Source: an uncultured Verrucomicrobiota bacterium
GTDB taxonomy: Bacteria; Verrucomicrobiota; Verrucomicrobiia; Limisphaerales; UBA9464
Assembly (NCBI GenBank): GCA_903910585.1
Contig: CAIWAH010000141.1
Coordinates: 9,261 to 73,260 of the forward strand
Length of the DNA: 64,000 nucleotides
Direction: 5' to 3'
Below are positions 6,426 to 17,188 of this stretch, piece by piece. The position numbers were made by a program, and so were the translations under genes. The stretch's first letter is position 1. The number at the start of each line of letters is the position of its first letter. The notes below the pieces were generated by a model that was not told where the DNA came from, did not search any database, and saw nothing but the letters and a program-made list of their open reading frames with translations.

Positions 6426-7637
6426 TCATTTGCCCTTCAGCAGCTTCAGCCGGGGCGCGAGCAGAGAGGCGGTGCGGGCGAAAACCTCCGGCGGCACGCC
6501 CAGTGCCTGTTTCAATTCCACGTCGCGGTCCCATGGATTGCCGATTTGGGCGAGCCGGCTCATCTCCGCCTTTTCCAAGTGCAGGCCGAACAGCCAGGGC
6601 GAAACCAGCGCGGTGTTGATCAGCGGGAAATCGGAACCGTAGGCGAGCCGGCCGGCGAATTCAGGACGGGTGAGCGCTTCCTTCAGGTAGCCGGGCTTGT
6701 TCACCTGCGTGAGCGAGGAGATTTCCGAGTGCAGGTTGGGGAACTCCTTCATGAGGCGGGCGAGCCGGTCGGTATCCCGTTCGCCGCCATTTTCACCGGT
6801 CGAGGCAATGTGCGCGGCGATGACGGTGACGCCGAGTCGCAGGGGCAGGCGCAGGCGTTCGGGATCGGCGAGGCGGTCATCGGCATGCGTGAAGGACCGT
6901 TCCTGGCCGGCGTGGGTCAGCAGGGGAAGCTGGTGAAAGTTGAGCCGCTCGTAGAACGGAATGAGCCGCTCGTCAGCCGGATCGATGTGCATGATGCTGG
7001 GGATCCACTTCACCAGCACGGCACCGTTGGCCGCGCACCAGTCGAGCCGGGCCAGCGCATCGCGGCGGAGGGGATTCACCGAGGCGCCGAAGAGGAGGTT
7101 GGGGTGCCGGGCGGTTTCGCGGGCGACGAATTCGTTCGGCACATGGACCTCGGTGGCCGTGCGGTCGAGCTCGCCCGCGGCATCCACCGCGCCGTCCATC
7201 GCGAGGATGACGGCGTGGCTGACGTGCCGGCTGGCGGCGACCTGGGCGGCGATGCGGTCCACCAGCGAGGCGTCGCCCTGCGCGGTGAGTTCAGCGCGGC
7301 TGGTGCCGAAGGACTTGAGGTAGATGTTGAATTTCCAGCTCTGCTCCAGCTCGCGGGAAATGAAACAGCCGCTGCCGCCCGCGCCGATGCCGGCGGTGTG
7401 GACGTGCAGGTCAATGAGGCGCGTCGGAGGCAAAGGCGCCGGTGTGCGGTAAGGCCCGGAAAAGAACAGCACGCGGCCGACGACAAGCGAGAGGAGTCCG
7501 GCGGCGAAGAGGCCGAGGAGCCAGCGAAGCGCGCGTCGCCAGCGAGCGGAGCGCGGACGGTCACGTCCGCCAGGAGGCTTGGCGCTGACGCTGAATTCGT
7601 TGGTTGGCATGGCTTGTTTCGGCGCGAGGCCAATCAC
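6426..7637 (-). CDS. membrane-anchored metal-dependent amidohydrolase (TIM-barrel, amidohydrolase_2-like)
   Basis: N-terminal TM anchor (LRWLLGLFAAGLLSLVVG), metal motif IDLHVHT, and C-terminal AYGSDFP. GTG start at 7637; alternative ATG at 7610. Last gene of the 12992-6426 operon. Confidence 0.75.
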   Translation of the reverse strand: MIGLAPKQAMPTNEFSVSAKPPGGRDRPRSARWRRALRWLLGLFAAGLLSLVVGRVLFFSGPYRTPAPLPPTRLIDLHVHTAGIGAGGSGCFISRELEQSWKFNIYLKSFGTSRAELTAQGDASLVDRIAAQVAASRHVSHAVILAMDGAVDAAGELDRTATEVHVPNEFVARETARHPNLLFGASVNPLRRDALARLDWCAANGAVLVKWIPSIMHIDPADERLIPFYERLNFHQLPLLTHAGQERSFTHADDRLADPERLRLPLRLGVTVIAAHIASTGENGGERDTDRLARLMKEFPNLHSEISSLTQVNKPGYLKEALTRPEFAGRLAYGSDFPLINTALVSPWLFGLHLEKAEMSRLAQIGNPWDRDVELKQALGVPPEVFARTASLLAPRLKLLKGK

Positions 7638-7644
7638 TGGCTGT

Positions 7645-8346
7645 TCACGCGGACGTGACCGTCCGCGCCCCGGCGCGTTGACGGAAGCGCCACACGGCGA
7701 AACCGACCAGGGCCAGCGAAGCGAATTGGTAGCCCGACAGCCCGAGTGCGATCCGCGGCGTGTCGCGCCAGAACTCGTGCGCGAACCGGAACGCGCCGTA
7801 GCCGGCGAGGTAGAGATGGAAATGCTGCCCCGGCCAGCGCCGCTGCCGGCGCAACAGGGCGAACGTCACCAGCGCGACGACGTTGAACCCGATCTCGGCG
7901 GGCACTGCGGGCCAGCGTGGATGACCGTGGCGGTCGGCGAGCGTCCACCAGGCCGGGTGTTCGCAGGCGGCCCCGAGGCAACAGCCCTGAAGCAGGCAGC
8001 CGACGCGGCCGAGGATGATGCCGACCGGCGCCACGCTGGCGAACAAGTCGCCGGTGGCCTGCGGGTAACCGACCCAGCGCTTGGCCAGCTCCACGCCACC
8101 GTAGCCGCCGGCCAGCGCGCCGAGCACGGTTTTACCCGTGGCCCAGCGCAGCCATTGGTCAGCCTGGCCGTAGTCGAGCCAGCCTTCCGCGAGGAGGTAG
8201 AGCAGCTTCGCGCCTAGGGCCGCGCCGAAGAGGCCGCCGAGGTAAATGGGCAGCAGCCGCGCATCACGTCGGGCGAGGCGATACCAGAGGAACAGGCTCA
8301 CGCCGATGCCGGCGAGCATGAGCCAGCGGTAGGGAGAGGATTGCAT
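7645..8346 (-). CDS. lgt: prolipoprotein diacylglyceryl transferase family protein (short Lgt-like form)
   Basis: Multi-TM protein whose conserved blocks align by eye to E. coli Lgt: GRVGCLLQGCCLG vs GRLGNFINGELWG, PAVPAEIGFN vs HPSQLYE, YLAGYGAFRFAHEFWR vs FLIGYGAFRIIVEFFR. Start overlaps the upstream stop by 1 nt. Confidence 0.7.
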   Translation of the reverse strand: MQSSPYRWLMLAGIGVSLFLWYRLARRDARLLPIYLGGLFGAALGAKLLYLLAEGWLDYGQADQWLRWATGKTVLGALAGGYGGVELAKRWVGYPQATGDLFASVAPVGIILGRVGCLLQGCCLGAACEHPAWWTLADRHGHPRWPAVPAEIGFNVVALVTFALLRRQRRWPGQHFHLYLAGYGAFRFAHEFWRDTPRIALGLSGYQFASLALVGFAVWRFRQRAGARTVTSA

Positions 8347-8561
8347 CAGAGACTCGAACAGGCCCCGTAAACGAGTGCCAACAGAAGGGTCACAACTGCG
8401 AGCGGAACCACGAAGAGCCTTACTGCGACTTCAAGCAGCCCAGCCATGAAAGTTTTCGGCCGCCAAGCGCACTGTGGACAAATGACGGTTCCCGTATCGG
8501 TGCTCTGGTTGCTTGCGCCGCAGGCTGGGCAGGTCCACGGCGTTGGTAGGGGTCCGTTCAT
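8346..8561 (-). CDS. small zinc-ribbon protein with C-terminal TM helix
   Basis: MNGPLPTPWTCPACGAS..VICPQCAWRP (CxxC..CxxC) followed by a hydrophobic helix ending ..LVYGACSSL. Start chosen at ATG 8561, 7 nt after the radical SAM stop. Confidence 0.55.
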   Translation of the reverse strand: MNGPLPTPWTCPACGASNQSTDTGTVICPQCAWRPKTFMAGLLEVAVRLFVVPLAVVTLLLALVYGACSSL

Positions 8562-8568
8562 GGGAGAT

Positions 8569-10137
8569 TCACGGGATTGGGGGCGAATCGGCGAAGCCGG
8601 AATAATAGCGGCAGAACGAATCCAGCTTTCCGTCGGGGCGGATGACGTGGGTGCAGCAGCGGTCAATGCGGTCCTGATCCCAAGTCCACGCGTCCATGAA
8701 CGGCTTCACCATGAGACGGAAGGCGACGCTGCCTTTGAGTTCAAGATCCTTGAGCAGGGCGCCAAGCGGTTCGGTTTCGCAGCCGCAGCGGGCGAGGTCG
8801 GCGACGGTGTATTGGATCTTGTTCTGGAGGAAGCCCTGCAACCGGGCGAAGTCGAGGAACTCGCTCACGGAATGCACCTGGCCATTCAGGCGGAGCAGGT
8901 AGCCGATGATCGCGCAGTTCGGATCGCCGCAGGGCAGGGGCGTGAAGTCGTCGCGCTTCAGCCGGCCGGCGCTTTGGGCGAGCGCGGCGAGAAGGATGTC
9001 CGCGGCGTTGAGCCGTTCACCGGCGTCGAGGACAGCGCCCGGAACCGTCCCCGGGCGCAGTGCCTGGACCCCCTCTCCGCCATCCGATGGGGGAGAGGGT
9101 TGGGGAGAGGTGGTGTTCCGTGCGGCCGTTAGGTTCGGAGGCGGCCCCTCTCCCCGGCCCTCTCCCCGCTCGTGCCTCGCGGGGCGAGGGAGAACAGGCG
9201 CGCCAGCGTCCGGCCGCCGGCCGCTGCGGAACATGGGCTGGAAGGTGATGCCGTGGACGATGGGGCGGGCGAGGCCGAACTCGATGGCTTCCCAGACGTG
9301 CGGCAGGTTGTCGGGCGTGACGGTCATCGCGAGTGTCACCGGCAAGTCCATCTCGGCACAGACCGCGAGGGCGCGTTCGCGGGTGCTCCGGAGATCGGCG
9401 CCCCGCAGGAAGTGCTGGGCCGCGGCCTGCACGCCGTCGAACTGGAGGTAGAGCTGGAGTTTGCGGCGTTTGGCCGCGACCGCGAGTTGGGCGGCGAATT
9501 CGGCGTCGTGGGCGATCCGGACGCCGTTGGTGTTGATCAAGGCGTAGTCGATATGCGGATGGCTTTGGACCCATGCGAGCAGTTCCAAGAAGTCCGGGTG
9601 CAGCGTCGGCTCGCCGCCGGAGAGCTGGAGGATTTCGATCTTACCCTTGCGGGCGACGACGCTCTCGATGCGCGCCTTGAGTTCGGGCAGCGGCACGGCG
9701 TCCACCTTGCCGCCGGTGCCGAGCGGCGAGTTGGCGTAACAGGTCGGACAGCTCAGGTTGCAGGAACGGACGATTTCGATCAGCGCGAGGCAGGTGGACA
9801 GCGTCTCGAACGGCTGATCGCCGTGTCCGGCGGCGTTCCGGCCCAGCGAGGCCGGCGCGGAACCTTCGGCGGAACAGCAGCCGGAGCCGGGCGCGCAGCA
9901 GGCGTTGTCCGGATTGCCCTGGGCGAGCCAGTAAAAGTGCGCATCGGTGGCGAGGCAGGCCGACGATTCGCCGTGCTGTGGGCAGGTGCGGCGGAGCACT
10001 ACGCGGCTCGGTGCGACGCCTTCCTTCCAGACTTCGCCCGGGACGGCGGCGTGGCAGACGGGGCAACGGGTTTGGGTGTGCTTGAGGAGCTGGCGCGAAG
10101 GTTGGAGGCTGATGGGGGGCATGAGATCAATGCGCAT
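8569..10137 (-). CDS. radical SAM enzyme, COG1964-like (family of archaeal tetraether synthase Tes/GDGT-MAS, MJ0619)
   Basis: CNLSCPTC (CX3CX2C) radical SAM motif and SGGEPTL. N-terminal rubredoxin-like CPVC..TCPQHG. C-terminal PLPCGDPNC, CGC, and KPFMDAWTWDQDRIDRCCTHV..DGKLDSFCRYY. Start placed at ATG 10137, overlapping the upstream stop by 1 nt (alternative 10122; track start 10236). Confidence 0.85.
   Translation of the reverse strand: MRIDLMPPISLQPSRQLLKHTQTRCPVCHAAVPGEVWKEGVAPSRVVLRRTCPQHGESSACLATDAHFYWLAQGNPDNACCAPGSGCCSAEGSAPASLGRNAAGHGDQPFETLSTCLALIEIVRSCNLSCPTCYANSPLGTGGKVDAVPLPELKARIESVVARKGKIEILQLSGGEPTLHPDFLELLAWVQSHPHIDYALINTNGVRIAHDAEFAAQLAVAAKRRKLQLYLQFDGVQAAAQHFLRGADLRSTRERALAVCAEMDLPVTLAMTVTPDNLPHVWEAIEFGLARPIVHGITFQPMFRSGRRPDAGAPVLPRPARHERGEGRGEGPPPNLTAARNTTSPQPSPPSDGGEGVQALRPGTVPGAVLDAGERLNAADILLAALAQSAGRLKRDDFTPLPCGDPNCAIIGYLLRLNGQVHSVSEFLDFARLQGFLQNKIQYTVADLARCGCETEPLGALLKDLELKGSVAFRLMVKPFMDAWTWDQDRIDRCCTHVIRPDGKLDSFCRYYSGFADSPPIP
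9069..9199. repeat. GC-rich hairpin-forming repeat element inserted in frame in the radical SAM CDS
   Basis: 9071-9099 ccctctccgccatccgatgggggagaggg folds as a ~14-bp stem with 1 mismatch. A second imperfect palindrome lies around ccccgc(9164-9169)..gcgggg(9179-9184). The region translates as ..RGEGRGEGPPP..SPQPSPPSDGGEGV... Confidence 0.7.
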
Positions 10138-10421
10138 CAGTGAGGACGCATGAGCATCCATCCGACACTTTGAAGAAGCACCGAGGCCACAAAGCTGGCA
10201 AAAGACCAAAACCATGCCCGCACATACGGTCGCCAAGGTGATTCAGGCAGGCCGCGAACAATGTGAATGGCTGCCAAGGTAGAGAGAATTGGTGAAGTTG
10301 CCCCAAAGAGCAGCACGATAACCTTAAGATGGGAGGCGGCTCCAACGAGCACGCCAACCGCCGGTGCGACAGTCAGGCTGACCGGCAGGTGCCACCGGTA
10401 AGGGCGACGGGGCGCATTCAT
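10137..10421 (-). CDS. small hypothetical membrane protein (94 aa, about 3 TM)
   Basis: Hydrophobic ORF in operon register, with its stop coupled to the radical SAM start. Local GC is lower (a hand-counted 60-nt line is 57%). Confidence 0.5.
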   Translation of the reverse strand: MNAPRRPYRWHLPVSLTVAPAVGVLVGAASHLKVIVLLFGATSPILSTLAAIHIVRGLPESPWRPYVRAWFWSFASFVASVLLQSVGWMLMRPH

Positions 10422-10452: not shown

Positions 10453-10749
10453 TCAATGGAAGTTCGGTTGGTAGCCGCTAAGGGAGCAGCCGGTCAGTTG
10501 CAGCCCGAGGGAAAAGATGCCGCAAACGATGGTCCAGCCGAGGGAGTGAAGAACATCCTTTCCCGGAGTTCTGCCGGTGTGCAGGCCCAAGAGGATTCCT
10601 GCCGCCAGGCTTGCAAACGGCCAAAGCATCAGAGCGATTCCCACCGCAGGTTCGGCTCCGCTCAGCGCAAGGAATCCGGGCAGTGCAGTAAGCGCCAGCG
10701 CCCACCAGACTTTGGCGTTTGAACGCGGTTGAGGATCGGTCGGTTCCAT
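10453..10749 (-). CDS. small membrane protein, paralog B (98 aa), C-terminal lipobox-like LTGC
   Basis: MEPTDPQ.. start at ATG 10749. Three predicted TM helices. Shares GILLG..TG..HSL.W..SLGLQ..GC with the neighbouring 98-aa ORF. Confidence 0.6.
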   Translation of the reverse strand: MEPTDPQPRSNAKVWWALALTALPGFLALSGAEPAVGIALMLWPFASLAAGILLGLHTGRTPGKDVLHSLGWTIVCGIFSLGLQLTGCSLSGYQPNFH

Positions 10750-10762
10750 GAGGTGGGGAAAC

Positions 10763-11059
10763 TCAGAAACGATAGTTGACCGCATTGCACCCCATGAACT
10801 GAAGCCCCAAGGAAACCCCGAACGCACCCAGCGCCCAGAGCAGGCTGTGCAAGGCCTTCTCGCCTACCGAGTCGCCGGTGCGGAAGCCGAGCAGAATTCC
10901 CGACACCAAGGACAGTGCGGGAGAGAGAATGAGGTTGGCGATGGTGAACTGCTCGGAGTTGGACATCGTGCCGAGGAGGGCACCGAGGCCCGGGCCGATG
11001 GCGAGCAGGATCGCGATGACGACCGGAGCAGTGCTGCGGGGCGAAGGGCTGGTTTCCAT
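10763..11059 (-). CDS. small membrane protein, paralog A (98 aa), C-terminal FMGC motif
   Basis: METSPSPRS..; same length and conserved C-terminal block as 10453-10749. Confidence 0.6.
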   Translation of the reverse strand: METSPSPRSTAPVVIAILLAIGPGLGALLGTMSNSEQFTIANLILSPALSLVSGILLGFRTGDSVGEKALHSLLWALGAFGVSLGLQFMGCNAVNYRF

Positions 11060-11066
11060 GGGAATT

Positions 11067-11243
11067 CTACTTGTGTCGCCAAATCCGCCAGAGGATCGCG
11101 CTCAGGAGCGTGCCGCTTCCGGCGTAGAAAACGTGCCAGGCGTTCGGGAAAGGCCACTCGAAGCTGGCGAGGAATCCATAGGCACAGAACGTCGCCAGCG
11201 CCGCCAGGGGCAGAGATGCAAAAACCCGGGAGAACGTTGTCAT
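11067..11243 (-). CDS. small hypothetical membrane protein (58 aa)
   Basis: Below the ORF-track size cutoff. Hand translation: MTTFSRVFASLPLAALATFCAYGFLASFEWPFPNAWHVFYAGSGTLLSAILWRIWRHK*. It exactly fills the gap between two operon genes (6-7 nt spacers). Confidence 0.4.
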   Translation of the reverse strand: MTTFSRVFASLPLAALATFCAYGFLASFEWPFPNAWHVFYAGSGTLLSAILWRIWRHK

Positions 11244-11249
11244 GGGAGG

Positions 11250-11801
11250 TCAGGGACTCTGCTTCTTCATCGCCTCGGCATACTTCACGCCGTCGAGGTA
11301 AACTTCGCGGATGATGCCTTGGCCGGAACTGGGAATGGCGACGTCCACGGTGAGTTTGCCGCGGGGATTGCCCGTGCCTTCCCGGACGTAGAAGCGTTCG
11401 AGGCCGTATTCGACCCGGAGGTGATCGGGACTGGCGGACGACCAGGACCATGACGTTTCCGATTTGCCCCGCAGCACGGGATGGTCCGCGTCGGCGGGCA
11501 ACTCGGTGAAGGCGGCCTCGATGGCCCGGTGGAACTCGCCCTGGCGTTCCAGCTTCACGAACACGGGCGTGCCGGCGGGCGGCCGGTTGGTCAGGCCATC
11601 GGTGAAGAGCTTGGCGTCGAGCGTGCTGAGCTCGTAGTTGAGGATCACGTAGTCGCCCCGCAGCAGGTCGCGCGGGTCCACGGGCCGGGTTTCGAGCCGG
11701 ACGACGGTTCCCTGGCTGAGTTTGGCTTCCTGCAGGATGACGGTGCCGATGACCCAGAGCACTTGCAGGCCGACGACGAGGCTGAGGAGTTTCGTTTTCA
11801 T
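11250..11801 (-). CDS. GDYXXLXY domain-containing protein
   Basis: N-terminal TM anchor and the literal motif RGDYVILNY; typical partner of DUF2157 proteins. Confidence 0.8.
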   Translation of the reverse strand: MKTKLLSLVVGLQVLWVIGTVILQEAKLSQGTVVRLETRPVDPRDLLRGDYVILNYELSTLDAKLFTDGLTNRPPAGTPVFVKLERQGEFHRAIEAAFTELPADADHPVLRGKSETSWSWSSASPDHLRVEYGLERFYVREGTGNPRGKLTVDVAIPSSGQGIIREVYLDGVKYAEAMKKQSP

Positions 11802-11807
11802 GGCGGT

Positions 11808-12992
11808 TCAGGCGGGCTGAGGTTCGATGACGGCGAACCGGCGGATCAGGGAGCGGCGTTTGCGTTCCAGATAAACGGCGAGGCCGATGAGGAAGAGGCC
11901 GGTGACGACAAACATCATGCCGGTGGTCTGCATGGAGCCGAACAACTGGAAGTAGGCGGTGACGATGTGCAGGCCGAGGAAGACCATCGCGAGGTTCACC
12001 AGCCACTTGCTCCGCCGGAGCAGTCCCACCTGTGCCTGCAGCAGGCAGAAGGCGAACAGCACCGGCACGGCGATCCAGTGCGGCCCGACCAGACGGTGGG
12101 TTTCCCAGCTTTCGTAACGGCCCTTCAAGGTCAGGCCGAACCACGCGAGTCCAACGAGGCCAAGCTGGGCCACGGTCCACACCCAGCGCCACTGGCGGTC
12201 CGGAATCACACCCAGTCGCGGGACCGCCAGCAGCCACACGGCCACGGTCGCGACGGTCAGCCCGCCGGTGATTGCCCAGGCGGCCGGGGCGACGGCGTCG
12301 GAGCCATAGAACACGCCCAAGGTGAGCGGATAGGAGGCAATGTGCGTGGCCAGCAGGCCGAACTTCTCCGTGGGCGGCCCGAATTCCGGGAACTTCGACT
12401 GCCCCAGCCACAGGCCGAGTCCGGCGAAAAGAATCCCGAGCAGGGCATACAGCATGAATTGGCGGCCTTCCCCGGCGAAGTAGAGCCAACTGTCCTGCTG
12501 ATTGAGTTCCAGCCCCAGCCAGACGCCGAAGATCGTCAGGGCGAGGATATGCTGGGCTTTGGAGCGGAGAATCCACGCCAGCGGCGCAACGCCGGCCAGC
12601 CAAAGCAGAATCGCGTTTGGCGGGCGGGAGGACAGGTTGTAGATCTGGCCGACGAGGGCGATGTTGGCCAGGAACAGGCCGGAGCCAATCAGGTGCAGCA
12701 CCTCCGCCAGCACCGGGTGCCGGCCCGACCGGGCCAGCGCGATCCCACCCACGTGACTGCCGACCAGCAGGCTGACGGCCACCCCGAGCTTCAGCATCCG
12801 CGGGATGTCGTTCCAGTTCGACGCGATCAGCAGGATGATGCCCGCACTGACCAGAATGGCGCCGAGGATGCCGACAATGGTCAGGAAGCGGTTGCTCTCC
12901 CGGTCGAGCCTGAAGTGCTCGACGATGGCGTGCTCCTGCGCCTCGTTGATGAACCCGGCCTCGCGCAGCTTCCGGATGTCGGTGGCGTTCAT
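11808..12992 (-). CDS. DUF2157-type polytopic membrane protein
   Basis: N-terminal soluble segment (LREAGFINEAQEHAIVEHF) followed by about 10 TM helices. Classic pairing with the GDYXXLXY gene, 6 nt downstream. Confidence 0.75.
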   Translation of the reverse strand: MNATDIRKLREAGFINEAQEHAIVEHFRLDRESNRFLTIVGILGAILVSAGIILLIASNWNDIPRMLKLGVAVSLLVGSHVGGIALARSGRHPVLAEVLHLIGSGLFLANIALVGQIYNLSSRPPNAILLWLAGVAPLAWILRSKAQHILALTIFGVWLGLELNQQDSWLYFAGEGRQFMLYALLGILFAGLGLWLGQSKFPEFGPPTEKFGLLATHIASYPLTLGVFYGSDAVAPAAWAITGGLTVATVAVWLLAVPRLGVIPDRQWRWVWTVAQLGLVGLAWFGLTLKGRYESWETHRLVGPHWIAVPVLFAFCLLQAQVGLLRRSKWLVNLAMVFLGLHIVTAYFQLFGSMQTTGMMFVVTGLFLIGLAVYLERKRRSLIRRFAVIEPQPA

Positions 12993-13067: not shown

Positions 13068-15311
13068 TCAGGTTGTGGCCGCAGTCGCCTTCAGCCGGCT
13101 TTGCAGCTCCCGGTGGTTCACTTTCCCAGTGCCCAGCTTGGGGATCTCCCGCACGACCATGACCTCGCGCGGGACGCAGAGGTTGGTCATGCCCTTGCCG
13201 CGGATGACGCTGCGGATGTCCTCGAGGGTGAGCTTGGGCTGGTCGGTGACGGCGATGAGTTTCTCGCCCTTGTCCTCGTCGGGCACGGCGATGACCGCGA
13301 TCTCGCACTTGAGGCCGAGGTGCGGGAACGCGCCGGCCAGCGCGTCCTCGACGGCGGTGAGGCTGACCATTTCGCCGCTGATCTTCGCGAAGCGCTTCAG
13401 GCGGCCGAGAATGTGGACGAAGCCCTCGTCGTCCACCTTGACCATGTCGCCGGTGTCATACCAGCCGCCGAGCGCCTGGAACTTGGCGTTGGCGTCGGGA
13501 TTCAGGTAGCCGCGCATCACGTTCGGGCCGCGCACGAACAGCTTGCCGCCCTCGGCGACGCCCTCGATGGGCTCCAGCTTCCATTCCATGCCGGGCAGGA
13601 AGCGCCCGACGGAGCCGGACTTGGGTTCCAGCCGTGAGTTGATGGTGATGGCCGGGCTGCACTCGGTCGCGCCGTAGCCTTCGAGGATGCGCACGCCGAA
13701 CTTCTTCGCCCAGGTCTGCACCGTGGCGTCCTGGATCTTCTCGGCGCCGGCGACGAGGAATTTCACCGAGTTGAAGTCGTAGGGATTGGCCCGGCGCGCG
13801 TAGCCGTTGAGGAAGGTGTTCGTGCCGAGCATGACCGTGCAGGCCTTGTCGTAAACGGCGGCGGGAACGACGCGGTAGTGCAGCGGCGACGGGTAGAGGA
13901 AGGTGTAGAAGCCGTTGGTCAGCGGCACGACGAGTCCGGCCATGAGCCCGAAGCTGTGGAAGAGCGGCATGGCGCTGAAGAACCGCTCGTGATCGGTCAC
14001 GTCGAGCACGCCCATGAGTTGGCGCATGTTCGCGAGTAGATTGCCGTGGGTGAGCTCGACGCCCTTGGGCACGCCTTCGGAGCCGGAGGTGAAGAGAATG
14101 ACGGCGGTGGCCGACTGCGGATTGCGGATTGCGGATTGCGGATTGAGTCCCGCGCCGCACGCGAGGGTGTGCTTCACCAGCTTGGTAAGCTTGGTCAGGC
14201 CGGAGACGCCCGCGCGGACGTCTTCTAGGAAGATCAGTTCGATGCCGGCGTCGAGGAACGGCGTGAGTTCCAGCTTCGCTTTCTGGGCGAAGACCCGCGA
14301 CGTGATGACCTGCTTAAGCCCGGCCAATTGGGCGCATTGCAGCATCGTGGGGATGCCGGTTGAGAAGTTCAGGATCGCGGGAACGCAGCCGACCGCCCAG
14401 AGGCTGAGCAGGGTGACGGGCGTGCCGTTCACGTTGGGCAGCAGCACGCCGACGTTCATCGTAGGGCAGGCTGCCAGCCTGCCCGAGGTGTTGGCATTCG
14501 TTGCGCCCGAACTCGCAGACCCGGCGGGCAGGCTGGCAGCCTGCCCTACGTTGAGCCGCTTGCGCCATTCGCCGGCGAGCACGTCCACGCCGACCATCAG
14601 ACGGCGGTAGGTGAGTGCGGTGAAGGAGACATCCTCGAAGATGATCTTCCGGGGCAGCAGGGCGGCGGTTTCGACCACGGCGCTGAGGACATTCTGCGCG
14701 CCGAATTCCATCTCCGCCTCGAACTGTTGCCGGACCATCATGTCGCGCAGCCAGGTCGTGCGGCGCTGGCGGGCGACGCTGTTGGAGGTGCCGTCGGGCA
14801 GCGCCGGGGCGGTCAGGACGTCGCTGAAGTGGGCGCTGACGCGGGGCCGCCAGTGGGTCCAGCCGGTGTGCCGCACGAAGGGCACGCGGCGGGCGTTGCG
14901 CAGGTAGCAGGTGATGACCTTGGCGCCGGTCTTGTGGATCAGGAAACCGGTGCCGTCGAAGAGCTTCATCAGGGAGCCGGTCAGGGTGATGCGGCCCTCG
15001 GCGAACAGCACCAGCCGGCCGCCGGTGGCGAGAAACTCCGCCATGCGTTTGGCGGCGTAGGGCGACGAGGTGTCCACCGGAAAGGTGCGGCGGTTCACCA
15101 TCATCTTTTTGTGCACCCACGTCGTCTCGGCGGTCGTGGCGCTGGTGACGAATTTCCAGTCATCATCCAGCACGGCGTAGAGGAACAGCCAGTCGAGCCA
15201 GGAGACATGGTTCGGGATGAGCAGCACCGGGCCGGGTGTCTTCAGCACCTCGGTATTGAAGGCGCGGAAGCGGAACCAGAGCCGGGCGAACAGAAGGCAG
15301 ACGAGTTTCAT
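13068..15311 (-). CDS. aas: bifunctional 2-acylglycerophosphoethanolamine acyltransferase / acyl-ACP synthetase (Aas-like)
   Basis: N-terminal PlsC-type HX4D (NHVSWLD) and C-terminal AMP-binding core (LFTSGSEGVPKGV, YGATE, GWYDTGD). Carries two in-frame repeat insertions (see repeats). Confidence 0.88.
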   Translation of the reverse strand: MKLVCLLFARLWFRFRAFNTEVLKTPGPVLLIPNHVSWLDWLFLYAVLDDDWKFVTSATTAETTWVHKKMMVNRRTFPVDTSSPYAAKRMAEFLATGGRLVLFAEGRITLTGSLMKLFDGTGFLIHKTGAKVITCYLRNARRVPFVRHTGWTHWRPRVSAHFSDVLTAPALPDGTSNSVARQRRTTWLRDMMVRQQFEAEMEFGAQNVLSAVVETAALLPRKIIFEDVSFTALTYRRLMVGVDVLAGEWRKRLNVGQAASLPAGSASSGATNANTSGRLAACPTMNVGVLLPNVNGTPVTLLSLWAVGCVPAILNFSTGIPTMLQCAQLAGLKQVITSRVFAQKAKLELTPFLDAGIELIFLEDVRAGVSGLTKLTKLVKHTLACGAGLNPQSAIRNPQSATAVILFTSGSEGVPKGVELTHGNLLANMRQLMGVLDVTDHERFFSAMPLFHSFGLMAGLVVPLTNGFYTFLYPSPLHYRVVPAAVYDKACTVMLGTNTFLNGYARRANPYDFNSVKFLVAGAEKIQDATVQTWAKKFGVRILEGYGATECSPAITINSRLEPKSGSVGRFLPGMEWKLEPIEGVAEGGKLFVRGPNVMRGYLNPDANAKFQALGGWYDTGDMVKVDDEGFVHILGRLKRFAKISGEMVSLTAVEDALAGAFPHLGLKCEIAVIAVPDEDKGEKLIAVTDQPKLTLEDIRSVIRGKGMTNLCVPREVMVVREIPKLGTGKVNHRELQSRLKATAATT
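14116..14145. repeat. heptanucleotide tandem repeat (TGCGGAT) x4.3 inside aas
   Basis: tgcggat tgcggat tgcggat tgcggat tg read directly. Encodes NPQSAIRNPQSA on the minus strand. Confidence 0.95.
14460..14550. repeat. 91-nt element with perfect 25-bp terminal inverted repeats, in frame inside aas
   Basis: cgtagggcaggctgccagcctgccc (14460-14484) is the exact reverse complement of gggcaggctggcagcctgccctacg (14526-14550). Each arm is itself internally palindromic. Confidence 0.95.
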
Positions 15312-15525: not shown

Positions 15526-16986
15526 TCACCGGGCCTCCTTTTGTTTCCGGCGCGGACGCCAGCCGGTTACGGCGAGCCACAGCATCACTCCCCCAGTCGT
15601 CCAGGTGCAGGCGGGGGCGAGCCACGCATCGAGGGGCACGGTGCCACCCTTGCCGGACCAGCGCAGTCCGCCGGCGATTAGTTCGCCTTGGCCGGGGAAA
15701 GGGGCGGTGGCCTGCTCCCGTCCGTCGCGGTCGATGATTTGCGAGATGCCGGAACTGGCCACGCGGAAAACGGGCACGCGGTGTTCGACAGCGCGGATCC
15801 GGGCCATGCGGGCGTTGAGGCGATGCTGATGTTCGCCCCATTCCTGCACATCCATCGTGGGGATGAGGAGCGCCACGGCACCTTGCCGGACGAGTTCATC
15901 GGTCACCTGCCGGTAGCTGGCGTCGTAACAGATGCAGATGCCAAGCTTGCCCCATGGCGAATCCCAGACGCGCTGCGAAGGCGCCGGCTCGCCGTCGGCG
16001 AAGAACTGGATGGGCCGCGACTTGGCTTGCGTGAACACCACTTCGCCGTTGGTGCTGATGACGAAGGCGGTGTTGTAGAACCGCGCCTTCGTAGCCGCCG
16101 ACGTTAGGAGGCGGAGCGGAGCGGGGGCGGAGGAATCCGCCTCGTCACCTCGGCGGCTACCGGGCTCGATGGGCTGCTTGCCACCGACGACCAGCCACTT
16201 GCCGTTCCGCCTGCACCACTCTCTAACGGCCCGCGGCGGCGGCCCGTCGGCGAACGTGTATTCGCTGAGCATCAGCAGCTCGGCGTCGGGATGTGCCTTG
16301 GCCAGTTTGTCGAGGCCGGTAAGCACATCGGGGACGGCGGGGAATTCGAGTTGGAGGCCGGCGACTTTTAACGCAGGTCGTCTTTGCGGCACGGCCATTA
16401 GCGGAGGAAAAGCCAACGCTCCAAGTATTGCCGCGGAGAGTGCATAGATTGTGAGGTTTAATCTCCGCTTCAGTGAATTGGTGGCCAAGAAACCAAGGCC
16501 AACGAATCCCAACAAACCAAAGCCAATTCCGTAAACGCCCAGAATCGCCGGAAGCGCAAGGATGGTGTCCACGAGTGAGCTTCCCGCCGTGAACCACGCA
16601 AACCGCAGCCACCAGACTTCGCTCCGGAAATACTCGATCCCACACCAGAGCACCGGCGCGAGGATCACGGCCCACTTCGTTCCCAGCCGGAACTCGACGC
16701 GGTTCAGCGTCAGCAAGAAGGCGGCGTGGAACAACGCGAGGATCAGCCACAGCGGAATCGCGGCCGCCTGGAAGATGGTCCACAGAAAGCCCATCTGCGG
16801 CACGAACACGCCGAGGCCGATCGCAAGTCCGATGTAGAATGCCTGCCGCGCCGTCGCCAGCCGCCGCAACGCGAACAGGCAACCCAGATACCCCAGCACC
16901 AACCAGCACAGCGCCGGCACCAGAAAGGCGAGGTGAAACAAGCCGACGGCCCCCAAGGCCAGCAGCGCGGCGGACTTGGCGGTCAT
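15526..16986 (-). CDS. lnt: apolipoprotein N-acyltransferase
   Basis: About 7 N-terminal TM helices, then a CN-hydrolase domain with MLSEYTF (Glu) and GICICYDASY (Cys). ATG at 16986; an upstream in-frame GTG at 17040 is also possible. Confidence 0.85.
   Translation of the reverse strand: MTAKSAALLALGAVGLFHLAFLVPALCWLVLGYLGCLFALRRLATARQAFYIGLAIGLGVFVPQMGFLWTIFQAAAIPLWLILALFHAAFLLTLNRVEFRLGTKWAVILAPVLWCGIEYFRSEVWWLRFAWFTAGSSLVDTILALPAILGVYGIGFGLLGFVGLGFLATNSLKRRLNLTIYALSAAILGALAFPPLMAVPQRRPALKVAGLQLEFPAVPDVLTGLDKLAKAHPDAELLMLSEYTFADGPPPRAVREWCRRNGKWLVVGGKQPIEPGSRRGDEADSSAPAPLRLLTSAATKARFYNTAFVISTNGEVVFTQAKSRPIQFFADGEPAPSQRVWDSPWGKLGICICYDASYRQVTDELVRQGAVALLIPTMDVQEWGEHQHRLNARMARIRAVEHRVPVFRVASSGISQIIDRDGREQATAPFPGQGELIAGGLRWSGKGGTVPLDAWLAPACTWTTGGVMLWLAVTGWRPRRKQKEAR
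16091..16160. repeat. 70-nt imperfect palindromic element in frame inside lnt
   Basis: The 11-bp arms gtagccgccga (16091-16101) and tcggcggctac (16150-16160) are perfect complements. Inner aggaggcgg/ccgcctcgt pairs partly. Translates as ..RRGDEADSSAPAPLRLLTSAATK... Confidence 0.85.
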
Positions 16987-17188
16987 TGGGCGACCGCAAG
17001 GTGGGGAGGCGGACTCGGCGGTTGGTTGTTCGGGTGACACGGGGCGGCGGTCAGGTCGGGAATTCGATGGTCAGCACGGGATGGCTATGACATGGCGCCG
17101 CGGAATTGGCCGAATTGAAAATCCGAATCGGGCCATTGGCCAAGGCAATAGCCCGACGGTTGGACCGGCCGCGGGCGGCACCGGCATG

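Follow-up and report, generated by a model that had tools for sequence, protein, structure and literature searches.

A C-terminal Gly-Cys module in small membrane proteins of Verrucomicrobiota, linked to a divergent Lgt paralog and a Tes-like radical SAM enzyme, as a candidate lipidation signal

The analysed window (64,000 nucleotides of contig CAIWAH010000141.1, positions 9,261 to 73,260, assembly GCA_903910585.1, from an uncultured Verrucomicrobiota bacterium) carries a minus-strand operon that encodes two tandem small membrane proteins (hereafter paralogs A and B), an enzyme of the radical S-adenosylmethionine (SAM) type and a divergent paralog of the prolipoprotein diacylglyceryl transferase Lgt. 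We found that A and B end in a C-terminal module (charged stretch, hydrophobic helix, Gly-Cys, short tail) that recurs in other small proteins, that the module is conserved, with a predicted topology placing its cysteine at the periplasmic side, and that the genes of module proteins, radical SAM enzyme and Lgt paralog are linked as a cassette. Our reading, tentative and held at somewhat less than even confidence, is that the module would be the acceptor signal for the dedicated Lgt paralog, with A and B among its substrates and their terminal cysteine S-lipidated. In the literature searched we found no description of an Lgt plus Tes-like cassette, nor of a C-terminally placed lipobox (in the papers found, ‘C-terminal lipobox’ refers to the C-terminal end of N-terminal signal peptides); the cassette, conserved in Verrucomicrobiota, is apparently undescribed. 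The component families are known; their association in one cassette, a signal at this position and its consensus sequence are not.

The operon is tightly packed and runs, in transcription order, from an Lnt-family gene (starting at 17040) to the gene of a 403-aa protein (ending at 6426), with spacers of 4-31 nt from the DUF2157 gene onward and two one-base TGATG overlaps (paralog C/radical SAM gene and zinc-ribbon gene/Lgt paralog gene). Its central genes are as follows (HMM, hidden Markov model):

10763-11059, minus strand: paralog B, 98 aa, three-helix membrane protein, C-terminus ..GLQFMG-C91-NAVNYRF (family HMM, E 4e-32)
10453-10749, minus strand: paralog A, 98 aa, three-helix membrane protein, C-terminus ..GLQLTG-C88-SLSGYQPNFH (family HMM, E 1.5e-35)
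10137-10421, minus strand: paralog C, 94 aa, divergent, with Trp for Cys (..LLQSVG-W-MLMRPH; family HMM, E 2.7e-9)
8569-10137, minus strand: 522-aa radical SAM enzyme (start codon ATG at 10137), member of the Tes/GDGT-MAS/TrsS clade (Pfam, NCBIfam, PDB 7TOL)
8346-8561, minus strand: 71-aa protein with a zinc ribbon and a single transmembrane helix, C-terminus ..LLLALVYGA-C-SSL, its stop overlapping the ATG of the Lgt paralog
7645-8346, minus strand: divergent Lgt paralog, 233 aa, seven predicted helices, signature motif altered to GRVGCLLQGCCLGAAC (Pfam LGT, 79.8 bits)

An initial annotation, made from the letters of the window, had described A and B as two 98-aa tandem paralogs; three helices are predicted in each, and their coordinates, C-termini and loop sequences proved exact, as did the zinc-ribbon/transmembrane protein at 8346-8561 ending in ..LVYGAC-SSL, and the inventory had to be enlarged by the third paralog at 10137-10421, which had been missed. 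A and B share 43% identity over 95 residues (BLASTP E 8e-20) and their genes are separated by a 13-nt spacer. The cysteine is residue 88 of the 98 in A, residue 91 of the 98 in B and, in the zinc-ribbon protein, residue 68 of 71, all far beyond the first ~40 residues of the precursor, where a lipobox cysteine lies; counted from the cysteine itself, 11 (A) and 8 (B) residues are left to the end, i.e. tails of 10 and 7. In the AlphaFold2 model of A (built with 32 family sequences; mean predicted local distance difference test score, pLDDT, of 84.8) helices occupy model residues 11-28, 32-57 and 61-90, the third continuing through the Gly-Cys pair. Paralog C has its nearest relatives in a third-paralog lineage ending in ..LLQGAGC.. 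(loci L015 and L003) and carries Trp at the site of the invariant Cys (..LLQSVGWMLMRPH), which would be a one-base change (TGG versus TGC/TGT). The overlap of its TGA stop with the ATG at 10137 sets the true start of the radical SAM gene there, and not at the TTG at 10236.

An exhaustive profile search of 1.84 billion representatives yielded 33 family proteins, 32 of which were aligned. The nine close homologs of A (67-96% identity) all keep GLQLxGCSxSGYQPN[FI]H, and among the 32 representatives (19-74% identity to A) G and C are the sole invariant columns; the terminal cysteine, on which the initial annotation had built its model, is retained in close and distant relatives alike. Members of the wider family are 100-135 aa long and comprise a Pro-rich N-terminus (in some with a CxxC..CxxC zinc ribbon), two helices of which the second is glycine-rich, a loop (e.g., LGRRxGKT), a third helix ending in x-x-G-C and a tail that typically reads xxxG[YF]x-hydrophobic-N-[FI]-H. 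B-type orthologs, with the C-terminus ..QFMGC[NT]AVNYRF, were found in loci L001, L003, L008 and L015. When genomes were scanned with the alignment A1, two loci only were recovered, both in metagenome-assembled genomes (MAGs) of Verrucomicrobiota. Separately, positions 43-85 of the family profile were matched in part, 21 times over (E 1.6e-5), by a protein of 4551 aa (P0024), which is probably a repetitive Gly/hydrophobic protein.

The mean net charge in the wider family is +2.4 in the loop before helix 3, +0.5 in the segment before helix 1 and +0.3 in the tail. This charge pattern, together with the zinc ribbons (expected to be cytoplasmic), leads to a predicted N-in, C-out topology, and the C-terminus, as the lipidation idea of the initial annotation called for, is predicted not to be cytoplasmic. 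On the positive-inside rule, the zinc-ribbon N-termini and the three-helix model, the cysteine is predicted at the periplasmic end of the last helix. The positively charged loop before helix 3 that had been ascribed to both paralogs holds for A (net charge +1) and for the wider family, and not for B (net charge 0).

For the comparison of loci we used the radical SAM gene, the most tightly linked neighbour of the small-protein genes, as an anchor: a scan of JGI (Joint Genome Institute) metagenomes gave 432 stretches encoding orthologs, of which the best 80 were analysed (65 distinct loci at 97% nucleotide identity; radical SAM orthologs at 59-88% identity). In 40 of 63 loci the family HMM detects a member no more than 2 kb upstream of the anchor gene, and since loci negative by this HMM still showed open reading frames (ORFs) with a transmembrane helix, G-C and a short tail, a direct motif scan was made (hydrophobic or small residues at 15 or more of the 17 positions preceding the Cys, the last 14 uncharged, [GAS]C, and 2-14 residues to the stop). 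The scan recovered 122 module ORFs on the coding strand of the cassette regions versus 3 on the opposite strand, with 65 of the 80 loci positive, at a density of 4.7 per 10 kb in cassettes versus 0.6 outside (5 of the 15 hits scored as outside actually fall into the interval from radical SAM to Lgt gene). In the dereplicated set at least one module ORF is present in 47 of 52 loci, and complete cassettes carry 1-5. Within the 64-kb window, three of 746 six-frame ORFs qualify (A, B and the zinc-ribbon protein), all of them in the operon.

The 106 non-identical C-termini have F at -3 in 73 cases and G at -1 in 93, giving the consensus F-x-G-C. The uncharged stretch leading up to the Cys is most often 22-23 residues long, a net charge of +2 is found over the ten-residue segment that closes with the last charged residue ahead of this stretch, and the tail after the Cys comprises 3-13 residues (most tails 5-13) with a net charge of 0 or +1; sequence conservation of this end across the superfamily is restricted to the Cys. 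Two or more CxxC motifs precede the helix in 30 of the 106. The module-bearing proteins range from single-pass zinc-ribbon to three-helix types, with a module of ~45 residues in common; BLAST single-linkage clustering of 125 module proteins (the 122 ORFs plus the three window sequences) put 113 into one group, so that independent origins in different families were not demonstrable.

Could such a module be a chance by-product of hydrophobic composition, its bearers being small membrane proteins of an ordinary kind, or else spurious ORFs of a GC-rich genome, without any special signal at the C-terminus? At the G+C content of the window (64.6%), ORFs that are short and hydrophobic are frequent, and A and B have no match in Pfam or NCBIfam (nor in PADLOC). 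Nevertheless, this explanation is effectively refuted, as homologs at 19-96% identity keep G-C invariant, the module ORFs fall almost entirely on one strand, their position and synteny are conserved across the 65 distinct loci and the AlphaFold2 model of A is confident.

In its architecture (n-region, h-region, x-x-G-C) the module resembles a lipoprotein signal peptide, from which it differs, judging from the aligned C-termini, in consensus, helix length and position. The lipobox match that had been noted for the window proteins stands in part: A (L-T-G-C) fits the strict four-residue form [LVI][ASTVI][GAS]C, B (F-M-G-C) and the zinc-ribbon protein (Y-G-A-C) do not, and none of the three passes the PROSITE PS51257 or the G+LPP core pattern, owing to Q at -4 and to F-M or Y-G at -3/-2. 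The PS51257 core is found in 76 of the 106 C-termini. Instead of a canonical L-[AS]-[GA]-C after a short h-region, the conserved form is F-x-G-C after a full helix of 22-23 residues, which is at or above the upper end of the range usual for signal peptidase II (SPII) h-regions (7-22).

The linkage between the small proteins and the two enzymes extends well outside this genome. Of the 38 loci that extend at least 1.5 kb downstream of the radical SAM gene, 35 have an Lgt paralog directly downstream (28 of 31 once dereplicated); L015, seemingly one of the negatives, is explained by a labelling artefact. Loci with close homologs (L001-L006, L008, L015) keep the order DUF2157, GDYXXLXY, two to three paralogs, radical SAM gene, small gene, Lgt, and elsewhere the radical SAM-Lgt interval holds a small ORF ending in ..FFFGC plus tail (16 of 35 loci by HMM). 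Out of seven distant family representatives checked, five are encoded directly upstream of a radical SAM ortholog, with Lgt next where the contig permits, and the other two (L010 and L011) are unlinked copies. The smallest arrangements are a three-gene cassette (L101: a 107-aa Gly-Cys protein, radical SAM enzyme, Lgt paralog) and a four-gene cassette in a Chthoniobacter sp. MAG (L096: a 67-aa protein ending in ..VIAGC-SAAGGKMDFK, radical SAM enzyme, a 103-aa protein ending in ..SGFLGC-ASLLADNKFH, Lgt), and both show overlapping stops and starts. Hence, the minimal cassette is one small Gly-Cys protein, a Tes/GDGT-MAS-like radical SAM enzyme and an Lgt paralog. Decayed paralogs without the Cys also occur (paralog C, P0034 and the third paralog in L008).

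Two sets of neighbours were rejected as members of this unit. DUF2157 and GDYXXLXY, considered as functional partners, are present in close relatives only (L001-L005, L008, L009, L015) and absent from the other radical SAM loci; of the loci anchored on the radical SAM gene, the closest alone has them. The presence of an Lgt-family gene in the operon (7645-8346) and of lnt on the same strand upstream (15526-17040), both pointed out initially, was confirmed; the Lgt linkage generalised as described, and Lnt, which occurs in just 2 of the 29 long loci, both from close relatives, was discarded from the core (in L003 other genes already stand in for Lnt/Aas). A phmmer search with E. coli LspA as query for the lspA partner that the initial annotation had envisaged returned no homologue in 730 kb of window and related loci. 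We saw no sortase-type gene in the cassettes, where no systematic sortase search was made. Apparent fusions of a Gly-Cys protein to Lgt were rejected as Rosetta stones: P0168 is a frameshifted read-through and L009 (9977-10921, Verrucomicrobia MAG CAIJLV010000145.1) an in-frame deletion, in which a Gly-Cys protein at ..LQLAGCSL is joined to the Lgt paralog at WHRLARRD... with loss of the tail, of both intervening genes (radical SAM and zinc ribbon) and of the first helix of Lgt; the junction is probably a natural deletion or an assembly collapse and not a functional fusion.

These distributions bear on the suggestion of the initial annotation that free lipopeptides of 8-11 residues are released, which was pure inference and which nothing in our analysis favours (cleavage of the tail from module proteins is speculative altogether). 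In this housekeeping-type route, a special case of the lipidation reading, an Lgt-family enzyme, LspA and Lnt would act in succession to release di- or tri-acylated lipopeptides of 4-14 residues (e.g., acyl-C(DAG)SLSGYQPNFH, DAG standing for diacylglyceryl), the polytopic part being a disposable leader as in ribosomally synthesised and post-translationally modified peptides (RiPPs). The prevalence of Gly at -1 (93 of the 106 C-termini) suits SPII, tails are conserved within subfamilies (as in the three-helix family pattern given above), lnt and aas share the operon in the window and its close relatives, and Aas/LplT-Aas genes, which repair the lysolipid from Lnt-type acyl transfer, recur in distant loci. 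However, LspA and Lnt have the distribution just described, the helix exceeds the typical SPII h-region, and the leader is conserved as strongly as the tail (P23, the glycine series G50/G54/G58 and the zinc ribbons), unlike in RiPPs. Such release would also leave the obligate radical SAM enzyme, the most constant partner and one that the initial model had omitted, without a role, and we consider it distinctly unlikely.

The Lgt paralog is assigned to its family by Pfam (LGT, 79.8 bits versus a gathering score of 24.9, profile positions 14-236 of 240) and misses the lgt equivalogs by a wide margin (TIGR00544, 27.2 bits versus a cut-off of 118.9; NF000778, 50.4 bits versus 334); with the substitutions below, this sets it apart from the housekeeping enzyme. 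Its family comprises at least 937 clusters, all named members coming from Verrucomicrobiota or Chthoniobacter MAGs, and pipelines annotate these clusters as prolipoprotein diacylglyceryl transferase, a name that is probably misleading. When 44 orthologs were aligned to Escherichia coli Lgt, the residues Y26, G104, D129, R143, G154, Y235, R239, E243 and R246 were found to be kept in 43-44 of the 44, and three others to be replaced (H103 by L or T, N146 by C in 44 of 44, E151 by C in 43 of 44). The Lgt signature motif GRLGNFINGELWG becomes GR.GC...GCC.G..C in the paralog, with four invariant cysteines (C116, C121, C122 and C127, within residues 112-127; window 7990-8010, minus strand) at the periplasm-facing active site. 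The periplasmic head is ~20 residues shorter than that of E. coli Lgt. An AlphaFold2 model (pLDDT 87, predicted template modelling score 0.85) has seven long helices, with a head region of pLDDT <50 and low confidence just after the Cys cluster (model residues 123-130 and 137-141).

In the E. coli enzyme, whose active site is at the periplasmic interface, R143 directly binds the donor phosphatidylglycerol (PG), E151 is part of the first PG site (E151A/Q inactive), H103 is essential (all tested mutants inactive) and its HGGL motif is the proposed site of the lipobox peptide (PMC4728403). N146 belongs to the hydrogen-bond network of the signature motif. By this alignment, the paralog appears to retain the phosphate-binding core and to have its acceptor and donor-selection sites rebuilt; the replacement of H103 and E151 is in line with a changed acceptor motif and perhaps a changed donor, and the rebuilding could just as well reflect a different chemistry. 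Disulfides may form within the Cys cluster, or the cluster may bind a metal (Zn) that activates the thiol.

The radical SAM enzyme matches the Pfam families Radical_SAM (55 bits), Zn_ribbon_HMPTM (46 bits) and Fer4_12, and no others; its motifs are an N-terminal HMPTM-type zinc ribbon, CNLSCPTC (CX3CX2C core) and a C-terminal RCCTH..FC. It aligns to GDGT-MAS (PDB 7TOL, E 1.6e-28) over residues 20-296 and 458-493, the C-terminal Cys motif included, and scores below the NCBIfam cut-offs of TrsS (201 bits versus 490, NF045646) and Tes (141 bits versus 450, NF045702). Neither a SPASM nor an RRE/PqqD element was found in it, the SPASM models of NCBIfam matching the generic core only (21-43 bits). 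Bacterial Tes homologs are known bioinformatically only and have been proposed to make membrane-spanning lipids (PMC8941075, PMC13159169, PMC13459092). The window enzyme has a ~45-aa in-frame low-complexity insert (~8990-9210, minus strand; ..RHERGEGRGEGPPP..TTSPQPSPPSDGGEGVQALRPGTVPG..), common to its clade (L001, L003, L008), absent from distant orthologs (L007, L014, L099) and without a second copy in the window. In several other loci, a second Tes/TrsS-like radical SAM gene directly follows the Lgt paralog (L069/L071, 9281-10645; L078, 8758-10122; L086, 5487-6851; L090, 5584-6948), scoring 337 bits for TrsS and 292 bits for Tes, both under the cut-off.

Taken as a lipidation system, the cassette might operate as follows. 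A, B, the zinc-ribbon protein and the decayed paralog C belong to a superfamily of small inner-membrane proteins, with a common C-terminal module made of a positive cytoplasmic stretch, a ~23-residue uncharged helix ending in F/L-x-G-C and a periplasmic tail of 3-13 residues. On the outer face of the inner membrane, the Lgt paralog would attach a glycerolipid to the thiol of the Cys, in the way that Lgt alkylates lipobox cysteines, its target being the C-terminal end of a protein already embedded in the membrane and its recognition motif being altered. The radical SAM enzyme is the third obligate component, cytoplasmic and translationally coupled to the small proteins; in our speculation, it would most likely act on hydrocarbon tails (of the donor or of a protein-bound lipid) and not on peptide.

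Several observations speak for this lipidation reading: the predicted position of the Cys at the periplasmic interface, where the active site of Lgt lies; the signal-like architecture common to dissimilar small proteins, combined with a near-obligate three-gene linkage; the retention of the PG-binding R143; and the recurrence near the cassette (Aas-type genes in 6 of 29 long loci) of Aas/LplT-Aas genes of lysophospholipid re-acylation. Furthermore, copy numbers of 1-5, tandem paralogs, and Cys-less decayed and unlinked copies suggest the behaviour of substrates and not of fixed subunits. Weighing against lipidation, the G+LPP core is met by just 4 of the 106 C-termini, so that the motif is non-canonical as a lipobox, and a Foldseek search of the Lgt-paralog model against the PDB gave no match at E <= 0.001 (5AZB was unlisted), which leaves fold-level similarity unconfirmed and which we take as a failure of sensitivity. 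With H103, N146 and E151 all replaced, moreover, the paralog may not be a diacylglyceryl transferase at all, and the four invariant cysteines in its active-site loop could point to different chemistry, e.g. disulfide formation or metal binding. What the radical SAM enzyme does is left unexplained by simple lipidation, and stoichiometric subunits, too, would be compatible with genes whose stops and starts are so tightly coupled to those of both enzymes.

The last points lead to the main rival, in which the small proteins serve as structural or regulatory subunits, be it as membrane anchors, as adaptors or as electron donors, in a Tes-like plus Lgt-like lipid-remodelling complex that might make membrane-spanning or otherwise modified glycerolipids, and in which the terminal Cys takes part in a disulfide or a metal site together with the Cys-rich loop of the Lgt paralog. 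Besides the stop/start overlaps with both enzyme genes, this explanation draws on the need of a soluble Tes-type enzyme for a membrane tether, on the CxxC..CxxC domains (possibly rubredoxin-like) of 30 of the 106 members, on the location of the four invariant cysteines right at the periplasm-facing signature motif, on the lipid-metabolism genes (PlsY, fatty-acid hydroxylase, Aas) near some loci, and on the suspected part of bacterial Tes homologs in making membrane-spanning lipids (PMC8941075). The variable copy number, the Cys-less decayed paralogs and the unlinked copies in L010 and L011 speak against a fixed subunit, and what is conserved between dissimilar small proteins is a signal-like module (n-region, h-region, G-C) and not an interaction surface. 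We consider the subunit role unlikely on balance, if far from negligible.

The radical SAM gene also invites the view that the small proteins are RiPP-type precursors, whose C-terminal peptide would be modified by the enzyme (e.g., by a Cys-aromatic thioether or a C-C crosslink) before its insertion into the membrane or in the course of it: several precursor-like genes in tandem immediately precede the radical SAM gene, with translational coupling, and in the three-helix family an aromatic residue at +5 is conserved along with the Cys. Yet the enzyme belongs to the lipid-coupling Tes/GDGT-MAS clade (the 7TOL match) and has no SPASM or RRE (RiPP recognition element) match in Pfam, the Fe-S enzyme is a cytoplasmic protein while the predicted location of Cys and tail is the periplasm, the tails are unconserved across the superfamily save for the Cys, and the equally conserved Lgt paralog is left without a role. 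We therefore assign this view only a faint probability.

A bolder variant of lipidation, which we rate as improbable, combines both enzymes in a protein-templated lipid-coupling machine, where a Cys-bound lipid of the outer leaflet would be joined to a lipid of the inner leaflet. A helix of fixed length would receive diacylglycerol from the Lgt paralog at its periplasmic Cys and would attract the Tes-like enzyme with its cytoplasmic end, and the latter enzyme would couple lipid tails of the outer to those of the inner leaflet, yielding a membrane-spanning lipid that is protein-linked or later released.

Lipidation of proteins by Lgt is textbook N-terminal chemistry in bacteria. The cassette resembles the Lgt-LspA-Lnt/SPII pathway in its charged segment, uncharged helix, x-x-G-C, predicted periplasmic-leaflet Cys and PF01790 enzyme with R143, R239, Y26, Y235 and E243. 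It differs from it in that the signal is C-terminal in a polytopic or single-pass protein, with 3-13 residues after the Cys and the form F-x-G-C, in the lack of a linked LspA, in an Lnt linked in one lineage only and in a radical SAM enzyme as obligate partner. From E. coli Lgt the cassette paralog is set apart by the loss of H103, N146 and E151, the shortened head domain and scores far under the equivalog cut-offs. With Tes/GDGT-MAS (7TOL) and the TrsS selenoprotein family, the radical SAM enzyme shares a homologous core, the HMPTM zinc ribbon and the C-terminal Cys motif; unlike them, it falls under both equivalog cut-offs and is paired with an Lgt paralog and Gly-Cys-tailed proteins, a context that we did not find reported for Tes. 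Bacterial Tes homologs have been hypothesised to couple lipid tails (PMC8941075).

Further afield, two kinds of C-terminal signal deserve comparison. In the sortase-type systems (PGF-CTERM/archaeosortase A, PEP-CTERM/exosortase, GlyGly-CTERM/rhombosortase, MYXO-CTERM), a C-terminal motif and transmembrane helix are served by a dedicated membrane enzyme, and processing of PGF-CTERM leads to lipid anchoring. The cassette shares with them the short motif and helix at the extreme C-terminus of several paralogs; their order, however, is outside motif, helix, basic cluster, while that of the cassette is basic cluster, helix, G-C, short tail, and the partner enzymes of the cassette are Lgt-like and radical SAM. 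Among the NCBIfam CTERM models, none matched A, B or the zinc-ribbon protein. Eukaryotic CaaX S-prenylation likewise has its lipidated Cys a few residues from the C-terminus, as predicted here, and some tails have exactly three residues (C-SSL, C-AAL, C-AFH); the loss of H103 and the Cys cluster of the paralog also recall, speculatively, Zn-activated thiol alkylation. Unlike the cassette signal, CaaX modification is cytosolic, depends on soluble prenyltransferases and isoprenoid diphosphates and has no preceding transmembrane helix, and most cassette tails are longer (5-13 residues).

If the proposed lipidation near the C-terminus of membrane-embedded proteins by an Lgt paralog is true, it would represent a new topology and a new recognition motif (F-x-G-C), and would provide the first functional context for a bacterial Tes homolog. 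Such homologs are suspected makers of branched glycerol dialkyl glycerol tetraethers (brGDGTs) or other membrane-spanning lipids, which are used as palaeoclimate proxies. Were the lipid-coupling variant true, it would offer a bacterial, Verrucomicrobial route to lipids resembling brGDGTs or diabolic acid and a new class of C-terminal protein lipidation, and a radical SAM step that couples a protein-bound lipid could be categorically new. The cassette is small (at least three genes) and abundant in soil and peat Verrucomicrobiota.

The remaining genes of the window operon are:

15526-17040, minus strand: Lnt-family N-acyltransferase gene (Pfam/NCBIfam matches)
13068-15311, minus strand: Aas-type acyltransferase/acyl-ACP (acyl carrier protein) synthetase gene (Pfam/NCBIfam matches)
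11808-12992, minus strand: DUF2157 membrane-protein gene (Pfam match), lineage-specific neighbour outside the core
11250-11801, minus strand: GDYXXLXY membrane-protein gene (Pfam match), lineage-specific neighbour outside the core
11067-11243, minus strand: 58-aa two-helix ORF without terminal Cys, between the GDYXXLXY gene and paralog B (ORF call)
6426-7637, minus strand: 403-aa membrane-anchored protein, last gene of the operon (no Pfam or NCBIfam match)

The 403-aa protein occurs in L001, L003, L008, L009 and L015, and in 5 of the 29 long loci; it is an accessory that belongs mainly to the lineage of the window. In distant loci an Aas-type gene follows the Lgt paralog (L065, 8474-11983; also L036, L083 and L089), and that of L065 is a fusion of a major facilitator superfamily (LplT) domain, acyltransferase and acyl-ACP synthetase that scores above the NF006386 equivalog cut-off. 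PlsY, a fatty-acid hydroxylase and a FeeM-like gene lie just upstream of the cassette on the P0140 contig, and a DUF6580 plus Metallophos_2 gene pair adjoins the cassette both there and in L003 (1231-2371), in two arrangements. A membrane protein of ~140-160 aa (VWVQVGIARGxLECxLG....QQAGFG; e.g., L007, 2832-3263, and L099, 7020-7436), without a Pfam match and absent from the window, is encoded upstream of the small Gly-Cys proteins in 32 of the 80 radical SAM loci and may be a further accessory component.

In the 64-kb window no tRNA genes were found, and PADLOC gave no defence-system match beyond generic radical SAM similarity. The 58-aa ORF at 11067-11243, whose similarity to the small-protein family is weak or marginal, is absent at the equivalent position in L001, and its status as a gene is uncertain. 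In L008 and L003 its position holds another family paralog (Cys-less in L008), and the ORF may be the remnant of such a paralog.

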